A stretch of 30,130 bases of DNA from an uncultured Candidatus Poseidoniales archaeon (GTDB lineage Archaea; Thermoplasmatota; Poseidoniia; Poseidoniales; Thalassarchaeaceae), in assembly GCA_964470075.1 (NCBI GenBank), contig CAYYAH010000001.1, positions 1-30,130 of the forward strand, written 5' to 3'. Each line of letters opens with the position of its first letter. Position 1 is the stretch's first letter. Below are positions 24,946-28,063 of the stretch, piece after piece. Position numbers and translations under genes: made by a program. Below the pieces are notes generated by a model that was given only the letters and a program-made list of their open reading frames with translations, did not search any database and had not been told where the DNA came from.

Positions 24946-24972
24946 TTTGTGCCCTCTGCCTCAGGGGCCTTC

Positions 24973-25113
24973 GTGGACATAGACCACTGTGAAGACATAA
25001 GGTGCGGATGCGGATTCACTGGATCGGCGATTCCGATGAGGCAGCACATGGAGTGTCCGAGATGCCGCAGAGTGGTCGAGGCGTGTTGTGAAGGAGTTCC
25101 GGACTATTCCTAG
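24973..25113 (+). CDS. Cys-rich microprotein (46 aa, 7 Cys, 2 His)
   Basis: MDIDHCEDIRCGCGFTGSAIPMRQHMECPRCRRVVEACCEGVPDYS. GTG start (alternative GTG 24949). It fills the gap exactly and its TAG overlaps the convergent gene's stop. Not in the ORF track. Confidence 0.6.
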   Translation: MDIDHCEDIRCGCGFTGSAIPMRQHMECPRCRRVVEACCEGVPDYS

Positions 25114-25898
25114 GAAGTGCGGTCTCTGTAGCTGGATAGTAATCCCGTCATCAATACTCCTGCTGCAGCGCCGAACATCATTCCTTGCTCCTCAAAACTG
25201 CTGCCTGCCAAGTCTCGAAAGGCCAGTGTCATGGCGCCCGTCATTGGGATTACGAACACAGCGAAGCGTGTGGCCCATTGTCTAGGATTTGGTGCCCTTC
25301 CCATCGGTCTAAGAACTAATGAGCTTGACTTCTGAATAATCTGCCACTCGGCATTCTCTGCCCCGATTTTGAGTCGTTGAATGACGGCTGGCCTAATTCC
25401 AGGGTCAGCAGATTTTGGACGAGTATCATCCCCATGTCCAGTAATTAATTTCAGGCGACCAAGACTTGCCCTGTTCTCTAACAACATATCCACCAGAGCT
25501 GCGGCTGAAGGTGTATCTAGACCATGCAAATCCACTACCAAGACTCCTCTGTCTCGTCGTATCTGCTGCTCTACTGACCAAGATCTAGAGGCAAAAACAT
25601 ACGTTCTTTCTTCTATCGGAGCAAGTATTGCTCTGACTTTGATTACCTCTGCCTCTCTGATAGATGCCATGTCTCTGCCAGATGCCGATTGTTCTCTCAA
25701 TCGATGTAGGGCGAATGTAGTCACGATAACCGAGGCTGCTAGACCTGAAACTACACCTGAGCGAACGGCCTTCGGAACATCTGGGTCATCGAGGCCACTG
25801 AGGAAGATGACGATGAATGAACCCATGACTGCAACCATGGAACCTACAACGATCCCTAGCCAAAGAGCATCCCTAGCACCCAAGTCGGCCACAATCAC
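25110..25898 (-). CDS. Four-TM membrane protein with central Smr/MutS2-type nuclease domain
   Basis: VDLHGLD..LKLITGHG (about 25541-25305) between two N-terminal and two C-terminal hydrophobic helices. Confidence 0.75.
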   Translation of the reverse strand: MIVADLGARDALWLGIVVGSMVAVMGSFIVIFLSGLDDPDVPKAVRSGVVSGLAASVIVTTFALHRLREQSASGRDMASIREAEVIKVRAILAPIEERTYVFASRSWSVEQQIRRDRGVLVVDLHGLDTPSAAALVDMLLENRASLGRLKLITGHGDDTRPKSADPGIRPAVIQRLKIGAENAEWQIIQKSSSLVLRPMGRAPNPRQWATRFAVFVIPMTGAMTLAFRDLAGSSFEEQGMMFGAAAGVLMTGLLSSYRDRTS

Positions 25899-25920
25899 CG
25901 GATGCGGTTATCGCTCAAGA

Positions 25921-25927
25921 GTTCAAG
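25921..25927. promoter_or_regulatory. Candidate bidirectional TATA-like element (GTTCAAG/CTTGAAC)
   Basis: Centred in the 50-nt gap, 21-22 nt from both start codons (25898 and 25949). Confidence 0.35.
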
Positions 25928-25948
25928 GGTAGTCGGAATAAACATGAA

Positions 25949-26719
25949 ATGCTACTGAGTAATGCTGAAATCATGGTTGGGCGCAATGGGCTATCTAGCC
26001 GTGATCGTGAGCAGAAAGTTGGGAGAAACGTCGCCGCTGCGATTGGGGCGTATCTGTTGCTTTGCTTCCTAGCTCCGCTTCTGTTGCCAGAAGGAACAGT
26101 TCCAGAACTATCTGGCCGGGCTAATGCATTGGACTACGCTAGTGAGAGTAGTTGGGGCAATCAGGATCACGGAGAAAATGCGGACTTGGGGCATGACCAA
26201 TCAGCTCATGGAGGAACATTTGCTTGGTCGGATTTGAATCCGTTGTGGGCTTTTGTCTACGCCTTTGGCGATTTGAATTGCCATCAGAAGCACGAACGTT
26301 CTTGGGAAATTAATGGGAACCAGATGCCGGTCTGCACTAGAGATGTAGGCATCTTCCTAGGACTGGTTATTGGAGCTGCTTTGTTCGGCCTCAGAGGTCT
26401 AAACAGATGGACTGTTCGCGATACTTTCCTGTCGGTTTTTCCTGACGAGATGTTAGAGCCTCTGTATCTCAAAGACAGAAGAATGGTAGCCATGCTATTG
26501 CTAATTGGACTCGGCCTTGTACCCATGGGGGTAGACGGATTTACCCAACTTCTTACCGAATATGAATCAACTAATCCTGTTAGAGTAATCACGGGACTAT
26601 TCTCAGGTCTGGTTATTGGTTGGTGGTTCGCGGCTGCCCTGTGCGCTCGTGCATCCTTCTTCGATGATGATGCGGCGAGAGTATCTCTCCCTGCCAATGC
26701 CAGACTGATGATGAAGTGA
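25949..26719 (+). CDS. DUF2085-family membrane protein
   Basis: CHQKHERS, MPVCTRD, PMGVDGFTQL, ESTNPVRVITG. Confidence 0.85.
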   Translation: MLLSNAEIMVGRNGLSSRDREQKVGRNVAAAIGAYLLLCFLAPLLLPEGTVPELSGRANALDYASESSWGNQDHGENADLGHDQSAHGGTFAWSDLNPLWAFVYAFGDLNCHQKHERSWEINGNQMPVCTRDVGIFLGLVIGAALFGLRGLNRWTVRDTFLSVFPDEMLEPLYLKDRRMVAMLLLIGLGLVPMGVDGFTQLLTEYESTNPVRVITGLFSGLVIGWWFAAALCARASFFDDDAARVSLPANARLMMK

Positions 26720-28063
26720 TTATGCAGAGCCTTGCCACCAAGTCACAAGTCCACTAGGTCCAGCCGGTGCGCTGCCACCATCTACTCCCGGTCCGAGAAG
26801 AGAAATCCTAGCTAGAGTATCATTAATCGCAGATGGGTATTGCCCAGATCTTACTATCTGCCCCATGGAATATCTGAGATGAGTCGTGGGATTGTCTTCT
26901 ATCCACTTCCTGATTGCTTCCTTTAGTGGCCATATTGCAAGCATAGTCATCCCTACTGCTCTGTAACGCTGCCTGAGCAGGGATCGTGGTGCATCTCTTC
27001 CAAGTAGGGACTTGTGTTTGTGGACCCAGTCAGTATGCTCGTGGAGGTACTTGACTATTCTCTGAGTGTGGCGCTCGGAGACTGTCCTAACTGGCCCTAG
27101 TGCAGCGCGTAGCTCTGAGATATCTGCAGATGGTACAAGTGAGAGTGTCCCACAGACTGAAGACATCGAATGAGAGAATATGCTCCTCGAGATGTCTACC
27201 CTAGAGTCCTTGGCAAGATTTCCTAGCACTGATGAGTGTTCTTTCTGGGCATCACGTAGAATTCGCCAAGGTGCAAAACCTCCGAGCCAATCTTGGCTCG
27301 ATCCATAAGGCTCGACTCCAATGCCACTTAGAGTGGTCTGGCCCTTTCTTGTCCTTAGGAGTCTTCGAATTAGATGCCTTTCCACCGTTTCCACATCGAC
27401 ATTCAGAGGCAGGTGGCGATTGTGGATAAATCTGCGAATCCTCCTAGTAAGTTCGACTCTGAACTCGGCTTCAGTTCCTTCATTCAGTATAGGTCCGATG
27501 AGCGCGCCCATGTCGAATGGTGTCGGCATCTCAATCTCTCCAGATAGTAGCGATGCATATCCCTGCCTGATTCTTCTTTGAAGGTCGGTGGTTTCGAAGT
27601 ACTCTTCCTTATCGCTCAGAGCCCTGAGGGTTCCACTTTGTATTCTCTTCATGGCAACCTCAGGATTACAGTCGACCCAGATGCATAGGTCGGGCACTAA
27701 GGCTGCTGAGTTCATATTCGCGACTCGTTCTACTCCCGCTCCTCCGACAATTCCTTGATAGACAAGGGAAGAGTGAATGTTTCTCTCACTGACTACGGCC
27801 TTGCCTTCCTCGAGTCTTGGAAGTATCCAGCCATGAGAATGGTCTACCCTATCGGCCGCGAAAAGTCCGGCCTCCTCTTCAGGCGGCATCTTTCTCTTGC
27901 GAACAGCATCGATTGCCAATCTACCCAGAGGGTGTTCCCTCCTAGGTTCTCCAGTCACTTCTACCGAGGTGAATGAGAATTCCTTCTGAAGGACCTCAGA
28001 GACTATCTTTGTGGCCAGCCCCTTGCCGCTGCCATCTCCTCCTTCTATGGTAATCAGATACAC
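26720..28063 (-). CDS. tmk: Thymidylate kinase with ~230-aa C-terminal extension
   Basis: IEGGDGSGK P-loop, EP, LFAADR, SSLVYQG, PDLCIWVD; kinase domain about aa 1-215. GTG start. Confidence 0.82.
   Translation of the reverse strand: MYLITIEGGDGSGKGLATKIVSEVLQKEFSFTSVEVTGEPRREHPLGRLAIDAVRKRKMPPEEEAGLFAADRVDHSHGWILPRLEEGKAVVSERNIHSSLVYQGIVGGAGVERVANMNSAALVPDLCIWVDCNPEVAMKRIQSGTLRALSDKEEYFETTDLQRRIRQGYASLLSGEIEMPTPFDMGALIGPILNEGTEAEFRVELTRRIRRFIHNRHLPLNVDVETVERHLIRRLLRTRKGQTTLSGIGVEPYGSSQDWLGGFAPWRILRDAQKEHSSVLGNLAKDSRVDISRSIFSHSMSSVCGTLSLVPSADISELRAALGPVRTVSERHTQRIVKYLHEHTDWVHKHKSLLGRDAPRSLLRQRYRAVGMTMLAIWPLKEAIRKWIEDNPTTHLRYSMGQIVRSGQYPSAINDTLARISLLGPGVDGGSAPAGPSGLVTWWQGSA

Follow-up and report, generated by a model that had tools for sequence, protein, structure and literature searches.

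A membrane-clamped Smr-domain protein in Poseidoniales archaea as a candidate membrane-restricted endonuclease

The stretch of DNA analysed here (the window: 30,130 nucleotides (nt) of an uncultured Candidatus Poseidoniales archaeon, assembly GCA_964470075.1, contig CAYYAH010000001.1, positions 1 to 30,130) encodes on its minus strand a protein of 262 amino acids (aa) in which an Smr domain appears to be clamped to the membrane at both ends, by one pair of transmembrane (TM) helices before it and a second pair after it. In bacteria and eukaryotes, the cutting of mRNA at collided ribosomes is the work of Smr nucleases. The gene (25110..25898, stop codon included, with GTG as start codon) is a real, conserved gene of Marine Group II archaea, since it has 119 homologues, at identities down to 34%, and since a full-length profile matches 156 of the 201 genomes of the order, at one copy per genome and without internal stops. 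We tentatively favor the interpretation that the protein is a membrane-restricted module which both binds nucleic acid and cuts it endonucleolytically, with RNA as its most likely substrate, although our confidence in this falls somewhat short of even.

The order of segments was taken from the open reading frame (ORF) list, its translation, the homologues, and an AlphaFold2 model built on a 37-sequence alignment (mean pLDDT, the predicted local distance difference test score, 85.7: confident). All coordinates in this paragraph are on the minus strand. TM1 (residues 12-34; 25797..25865) is the strongest hydropathy peak (2.46) and corresponds to model helix 8-34; TM2 (residues 45-65; 25704..25766) is likewise a hydropathy peak, and its helix (41-72 in the model) extends to residue 72, into the predicted cytoplasm. 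A putative cytoplasmic linker helix follows (residues 77-102; 25593..25670), supported by the model and by the alignment consensus, with the conserved pattern E-V-x-x-L-R-x-x-L-x-P-I-E in the consensus of two family alignments. The Smr core (residues 113-200; 25299..25562), recognized from a Pfam Smr match on residues 122-177 and from structural matches, is modelled as a beta-alpha-beta-alpha-beta-beta domain at residues 113-198. It contains DLHG (the DxH or LDXH motif; residues 123-126; 25521..25532), TGHG (the TGxG motif; residues 153-156; 25431..25442) and a third Smr motif, I-R-P-A-V (residues 168-172; 25383..25397), which align with DLHG, TGRG and R-I-K-P-A-V of N4BP2; the first is read from the translation, the second from translation and column counts, the third from column counts. 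An invariant L-R-P-M-G-x-A-P junction (residues 196-203) lies directly before TM3 (residues 209-227; 25218..25274; model helix 205-231), which is visible in the translation. TM4 (residues 239-255; 25134..25184; model helix 236-255) carries the invariant columns G243-x-x-x-G247 and is followed by a basic tail, Y-R-D-R. A Kyte-Doolittle scan detects TM1, TM2 and TM3; the Gly/Ala-rich TM4 falls under the scan threshold, yet is helical in the model. With the last strand of the core ending at residue 198 and the TM3 helix starting at 205, the modelled tether between them is about 6 residues. The protein contains no Cys and no N-x-S/T sequon. The TM-TM-Smr-TM-TM layout put forward in an earlier, sequence-only reading of this DNA is thus borne out by the model, with the fourth helix below the hydropathy threshold, and translation places DLHG and TGHG where that reading had them. 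A plus-strand ORF overlapping the gene (25381-25932) was rejected as an antisense shadow, the homology lying wholly in the minus frame.

By sequence and by model, the middle domain is an Smr domain. Because the window's own copy scores below the gathering cut-off of the Pfam Smr family (PF01713; 25.7 bits), the assignment rests on orthologues, fold and motif register. Orthologues from two other genera do exceed the cut-off (36.4 bits in G005, 30.5 bits in G011); PF01713 is matched by 17 of the 26 members of a full-length alignment (best E 1.5e-6) and by 26 of the 38 members of a domain-centred alignment (best E 1.5e-8), and no other Pfam family recurs across these two alignments. When the domain-centred profile was compared with PDB sequences, the top three matches were all N4BP2 Smr (E 0.015), with DLH, TGRG and R/K-P-A-V of N4BP2 all in register with the family motifs; the full-length profile reaches N4BP2 at E 1.9. 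Among 122 homologues, the V/I-D-L/M-H motif is conserved, with D of DxH in 117 and H in 90, and T153, G154 and R169 are present in 117, 119 and 121, respectively.

Structural comparison gives a similar picture. Whether taken from the Foldseek list or from 48,161 chains scanned without bias, the best matches of the alpha/beta domain are Smr domains, at moderate Z scores: 2zqe (Z 7.6 and 28% identity, with a root-mean-square deviation (rmsd) of 2.0 across 72 of 80 residues), 2vkc (Z 7.3-7.6) and 3fau (Z 6.4, rmsd 1.8, 30% identity). The RNase E subdomain, SepF and IF3-C come next at Z 5-7, with identities of 6-16% as compared with 24-30% for Smr chains. A Foldseek search with the whole model found no match in the PDB at E <= 0.001, though Smr chains ranked first; the lack of a significant match can be put down to the TM helices, which dilute the score. 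Neighbors in the AlphaFold DB and ESM Atlas are Smr, DUF1771-Smr, CUE-Smr and PPR-SMR proteins, and matches to the whole architecture there come from Thermoplasmatota archaea only. Since one ESM Atlas cluster already bears the automatic name “putative Smr domain-containing protein,” the domain call in itself is not new. Two comparisons were less productive: the family profile aligned with four small archaeal soluble Smr proteins, a thin comparator, at a probability of 2.9%, with DLH and the G-rich loop aligned, and an exhaustive single-sequence HMMER search of 1.8 billion representatives returned 29 clusters, all of the same family or its fragments, with no connection to canonical Smr proteins among them. 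Overall, the Smr identity proposed from the sequence holds through orthologues above the Pfam cut-off, the fold and three motifs in register, the corresponding check on the window's own copy having come out below it.

The domain is predicted to face the cytoplasm. Lys and Arg residues were counted over 122 full-length homologues according to the positive-inside rule, giving means of 3.66 for the 15 residues after TM2, 2.74 for the 15 residues before TM3 and 1.93 for the C-terminal tail, against 0.12 for the TM1-TM2 loop and 0.94 for the TM3-TM4 loop. These two loops, 10-12 residues long, are acidic overall; the net charge of the soluble part is about +6. Because Lys and Arg are frequent in the Smr flanks and tail and scarce in the outer loops, the Smr domain and both termini are predicted to be cytoplasmic, a family-wide count that supports the cytoplasmic Smr loop of the sequence-only reading. 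Marine Group IIa orthologues are shorter (about 200-230 aa), with a pair of TM helices at the N-terminus and one or two at the C-terminus, and have the Smr domain on the same side of the membrane.

Under the favored interpretation, the first two TM helices and the linker helix would hold the N-terminal side of the Smr domain at the cytoplasmic face of the membrane, and the linker of about 6 residues would join its C-terminal side to two further TM helices, a double anchor that would confine reach and cleavage to nucleic acid within a few nm of the inner membrane surface. The substrate would be mRNA, or ribosome-mRNA complexes, reaching the membrane during synthesis of membrane or secreted proteins; in lineages that lack the motifs, binding itself may be the selected function, as in Bacillus subtilis MutS2 and Escherichia coli SmrA. 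RNA is favored because nearly all characterized Smr proteins act on mRNA or ribosomes, among them SmrB, Cue2, NONU-1, MutS2 and SOT1 (PMC11806357 and the Saito preprint), and because the gene behaves as a housekeeping gene. A more specific proposal is that the protein is a location-gated RNA quality-control endonuclease of Poseidoniales, cutting or (in the motif-less lineages) capturing mRNAs or ribosome-mRNA complexes during synthesis of membrane and giant secreted proteins. We regard this as improbable in so specific a form; if true, it would be the first archaeal counterpart of the SmrB/Cue2 no-go-decay nucleases, with a eukaryote-type, family-2 Smr.

A number of observations weigh against the favored interpretation. 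Some concern the domain itself: the window's protein scores 15.2 bits (E 0.024) against PF01713, and 17.2 bits in the genome scan, both below the cut-off, with the match spanning profile positions 1-51 of 77, and the middle residue of its TGxG motif is His, as compared with Arg or Lys in most orthologues. Others concern the substrate: the preference for RNA over DNA is drawn by analogy, and nicking of DNA in vitro is known for the Smr domains of both MutS2 and N4BP2 (PMC3200294). Modules that might bring ribosomes or ubiquitin to the domain (KOW, CUE/UBA, the MutS2 ATPase) were not found by Pfam in the window's protein or in 38 relatives; nor was an SmrB hook detectable by Pfam, which has no hook model, and no separate search for a hook was made. 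Published ribosome-translocon structures place the large subunit of a docked ribosome between the membrane and both the small subunit and the mRNA path. A seat like that of SmrB, at the 30S-30S interface of translocon-docked ribosomes, would therefore be sterically unlikely, since the modelled tether of about 6 residues would keep the Smr domain within a few nm of the bilayer. As to expression, a single RNA-library contig of 167 nt (25128-25294, one mismatch, depth about 9), from a marine metatranscriptome run, lies inside the 3' part of the gene, a weak hint and no proof of transcription. Matches to RNA-library sequences come from four metatranscriptome runs of a single study, in small shares, the three other contigs lying at the 3' end of the neighboring DUF2085 gene.

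The catalytic motifs and the gene itself have also been lost in places, which further weakens the case. In a tree of 151 sequences, the catalytic His is present in 113 and lost in 38, with at least 4 changes, and the gene is missing from genera g8 and g13, most of g12 and part of g5. Given these repeated losses of the His and the deletions in whole genera, nuclease activity is, as far as the family alignment can tell, not universally required, and the clean deletion of the gene in several genera indicates that the protein is dispensable and non-essential. At the deletion loci (L038-L042, in g8, g13, g12 and g5), sufD and the DUF2085 gene lie on the same strand, about 10-320 bp apart; the excision is clean, and the genomes are small (1.3-1.6 Mb).

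The motifs are nonetheless widespread. Both DxH and GxG are kept in 17 of the 20 sampled genera and both are degenerate in the other three (g5, g17, g21); by sequence, 107 of the 151 have both motifs, 38 have neither, 6 combine His with G-x-S, and none has GxG without His. The direction of loss is as would be expected for a genuine active site whose motifs are now and then given up together, although with 3-4 independent events a sign test of the co-loss gives p 0.5 and the co-loss is descriptive. The sequence-only reading had named poor conservation of DLH and GxG among orthologues as evidence that would speak against it, and this has come about in part: the motifs stand in 17 of 20 genera, and they have been lost jointly at least four times. 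There are precedents in SmrA and Firmicute MutS2, Smr domains that are retained after loss of DxH (PMC11806357 and the Saito preprint). Invariance in Marine Group IIb extends to the L-R-P-M-G junction, the TM3-TM4 hairpin (with F-R-D-L-A-G, and with G-x-x-x-G in TM4) and the Y-R-D-R tail, so that, judging from these alignments, there is strong selection on something besides catalysis as well. The retention of the protein by lineages without DxH and GxG suggests that binding, besides cutting, may be under selection.

Distribution and gene neighborhood point to a vertically inherited, order-specific housekeeping gene, neither a mobile nor an island gene. A profile broadened with Marine Group IIa sequences detects the gene in 42 of 42 genomes of one main family (those of Marine Group IIa), in 17 of 21 of the other, and in none of 241 genomes elsewhere in the phylum, sister family included. 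In all 25 comparison loci the gene adjoins, head to head, a gene for a DUF2085 membrane protein, beyond which come a long dTMP-kinase fusion, a CarboxypepD_reg-domain protein and a glutamine cyclotransferase, in fixed order; the other flank is variable, and in the window is occupied by the suf operon. In the four most distant of these loci, ORF lists and the family profile served to find the Smr ORF.

Soluble Smr proteins also occur in these archaea. A sister family of the same class has a stand-alone soluble Smr of 84-85 aa, with I/V-D-L-H-G and an H-G-H/Y-N/H-L-G loop, and one Marine Group IIa genome encodes, besides the membrane form, an additional soluble Smr protein of 155 aa, of the sister-family type (soluble Smr loci: L059, 1495-1752 on the plus strand; L061; L064; L060, 1276-1743 on the plus strand). 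Otherwise, Pfam Smr matches are uncommon in the phylum, occurring in 10 of 251 genomes at E <= 0.001.

Another possibility, which we doubt but take seriously, is that the protein is a non-catalytic membrane adaptor, whose Smr (IF3-C-like) surface would tether or regulate a ribosomal subunit, RNA or protein, perhaps together with the DUF2085 protein, any nuclease activity being vestigial or secondary. The TM3-TM4 hairpin, L-R-P-M-G junction and basic tail are more strictly conserved than the catalytic motifs, the protein has been kept after loss of DxH and GxG in at least four lineages, and B. subtilis MutS2 and SmrA are examples of Smr domains that bind ribosomes without cutting (PMC11806357 and the Saito preprint). 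Both motifs occur together, however, in most genera and in 107 of 151 sequences, an argument for catalysis being important in most lineages. The head-to-head pairing with DUF2085 across the order, maintained while the other flank varies, might be read as a sign of partnership, but synteny is generally high in Poseidoniales and the DUF2085 gene is present in 200 of 201 genomes, including genera without the Smr gene, which speaks against interdependence.

It is also conceivable, if rather unlikely, that the protein is a membrane-posted DNA nuclease that nicks or cuts viral or other foreign DNA as it enters, with confinement protecting the chromosome. In addition to the in vitro DNA nicking by Smr domains already mentioned, this draws on the logic of SNIPE, a membrane-anchored, cytoplasm-facing nuclease that cuts DNA at injection and is prevented by its anchor from damaging its own cell (PMC13190303), and on the model, in which the Smr domain sits very near the membrane where DNA would enter. 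Against it, the protein has no extracellular or sensor domain, its outer loops being 10-12 residues long; catalytically dead versions persist, which would be odd for a pure defence nuclease; and the gene is single-copy and vertical, in a constant housekeeping neighborhood with no variable island. PADLOC gave no match for the window's protein, for two Marine Group IIa orthologues or for the DUF2085 neighbor. The patchy distribution and variable, island-like surroundings of defence genes are not seen here, and the “defence or toxin nuclease” offered as an alternative by the sequence-only reading fits poorly with a single-copy, order-wide gene that is syntenic with housekeeping genes and has no PADLOC match.

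The main proposal of that reading, a collision-sensing nuclease of SmrB/Cue2 type which would cleave mRNA between ribosomes stalled on the SecYEG translocon, now looks quite improbable. It has in its favor an Smr domain with DxH and GxG that is predicted to face the cytoplasm, very large exported proteins encoded in the same window, and a review in which no archaeal no-go-decay nuclease is named (PMC11806357). It has to contend with a short linker to TM3 and an anchor on the N-terminal side as well, with a small subunit and mRNA path that would lie distal to the membrane if published ribosome-translocon structures are a guide, with the loss of the gene in several genera, and with the lack of any KOW or ubiquitin-binding module by Pfam (the uS2-hook also went undetected, there being no Pfam model for it and no separate search).

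Chance convergence on the common IF3-C-like alpha/beta fold, with an unrelated function, is largely refuted and scarcely credible: Z scores of 7.3-7.6 are in a range that the comparison tool itself calls common, RNase E, SepF and IF3-C are not far below, SepF-like membrane-tethered domains have the same fold, the window's copy is below the Pfam cut-off and the comparison with four archaeal Smr proteins was poor, but identity is clearly higher to Smr chains than to these other folds, orthologues exceed the cut-off, three motifs are in register and Smr is the sole recurrent Pfam family.

The head-to-head neighbor (25949..26719, plus strand) is identified by its Pfam DUF2085 match (8.7e-23). Its true start is probably the ATG at 25973 rather than 25949, because orthologue N-termini agree with the later position and an AATAAA element lies about 30 nt upstream of it. 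As it is kept where the Smr gene has been deleted, with no signal of co-loss, the DUF2085 gene is, on this distribution, not dependent on the Smr gene. The DUF2085 protein, at 58% mean column identity, is better conserved than the Smr protein; it has invariant C103, H104, C121, R123 and D124 and a His-rich acidic loop that is apparently external. A co-fold of the two proteins scored 0.00; it was run with no controls and is not used for or against binding. Literature searches on DUF2085 gave nothing relevant, the papers that name the family doing so in passing only.

A short divergent control region (25899..25972), delimited from the sequence and an alignment of intergenic regions of two genera, would be common to the Smr and DUF2085 genes. 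It contains the AT-rich AATAAA element and the 9-nt motif CTCTTGAGC (25913-25921, as read on the minus strand), located 23 nt upstream of the Smr start (23-29 nt with L002, L003 and relatives included) and immediately preceded by a conserved ACCC (GGGT on the plus strand). The motif is conserved in genera g1 and g4 only, and its conservation does not extend to more distant genera of the order; it could be a promoter or operator element of the divergent control region.

Two other genes of the window have features of their own. Just after sufD, and convergent with the Smr gene, is a Cys-rich ORF of 54 aa (24949-25113, plus strand), whose stop codon overlaps that of the Smr gene by two bases, each being TAG on its own strand; with tblastn matches of 61-92% identity in genera g1, g6 and g9, it probably encodes a genuine small protein. 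Beyond the DUF2085 gene, the dTMP-kinase fusion (26720-28063, minus strand) is a protein of 447 aa with the dTMP kinase domain at residues 3-174 only; its C-terminal extension of about 270 aa has no Pfam match but is kept at full length order-wide, at 42-89% identity in all comparison loci.

What the family offers is a whole order of very abundant ocean archaea with one membrane-built Smr gene, of a TGxG type resembling that of eukaryotes. An active domain would represent a new way to restrict a dangerous nuclease, with both of its ends clamped to the bilayer, and would give access to the study of RNA or DNA surveillance in uncultured archaea. Versions that are intact, catalytically dead or deleted form a natural comparative series.

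How new is this in light of the literature? A 2011 review described archaea as without Smr domains (PMC3200294); in the available portion of the Saito preprint, a phyletic survey places Smr “mainly in Asgardarchaeota and Thermoplasmatota”; and another review names no archaeal enzyme for cutting mRNA at collided ribosomes (PMC11806357). Full-text literature searches found no description of a membrane-embedded Smr protein, nor of Smr in Poseidoniales, in agreement with the impression of the sequence-only reading that the architecture had not been described before.

Among known systems, the closest in sequence are the family-2 Smr domains, defined by TGXG in place of HGXG together with LDXH (Fukui and Kuramitsu, 2011; PMC3200294), which include human N4BP2/B3BP (PDB 2VKC, 2D9I, 3FAU), yeast Cue2 and Caenorhabditis elegans NONU-1. 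By these motifs the Poseidoniales domain resembles the family-2, eukaryote-typical Smr: it has TGxG rather than HGxG and a conserved LDxH (V-D-L-H here). It shares with that family a long loop after TGxG, the R/K-P-A-V motif, the best profile matches (E 0.015), structural-alignment identities of 24-30%, and a helix before the domain, as DUF1771 is in the eukaryotic proteins. Family-2 proteins, however, are soluble, eukaryotic and multi-domain (CUE/UBA, DUF1771, kinase), the Smr domain standing at the C-terminus of a larger, usually eukaryotic non-MutS2 protein, whereas the archaeal domain is internal, between TM hairpins with two TM helices after it, in a protein of 262 aa without ubiquitin-binding modules by Pfam.

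A possible functional analogue, in quality control of mRNA and ribosomes, is E. coli SmrB (YfcN; PDB 7QGN/7QGR), a stand-alone Smr endonuclease of collided ribosomes that is likewise small, its single Smr domain bearing both DxH and GxG. It is a soluble protein with HGxG whose N-terminal hook binds uS2, and it inserts between two 30S subunits; the archaeal protein is anchored in the membrane at both ends on its short tether, and a hook is not detectable in it (Pfam having no model for one). The loss of DxH with retention of the domain in B. subtilis MutS2 and E. coli SmrA (YdaL; PDB 3QD7, which aligns with the Smr domain model at Z 5.8) parallels the condition of Poseidoniales genera g5, g17 and g21, although MutS2 has ATPase, clamp and KOW domains, SmrA is soluble, and neither is membrane-embedded. 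SNIPE (PD-lambda-1), a membrane-bound GIY-YIG nuclease of E. coli, works by the same principle that would apply here, that the location of a cytoplasm-facing nuclease limits its targets (PMC13190303). It differs in having a GIY-YIG fold, a single TM helix and a DUF4041 DNA-binding domain, and in being a patchy defence gene, in contrast to the vertical core gene encoding the archaeal Smr protein. The DNase-I-like subdomain of RNase E shares the Smr fold (Z 6.5-7.0, 11-16% identity). Bacterial endoribonucleases are themselves found at the inner face of the membrane, RNase Y by a TM helix and RNase E by an amphipathic anchor; they are sequence-unrelated to the archaeal protein, large and multi-domain. 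The Poseidoniales protein is an Smr-superfamily domain in an architecture other than those of SmrB, MutS2, Cue2/N4BP2 and PPR-SMR proteins: the domain is known, and the membrane clamp that surrounds it appears to be new.

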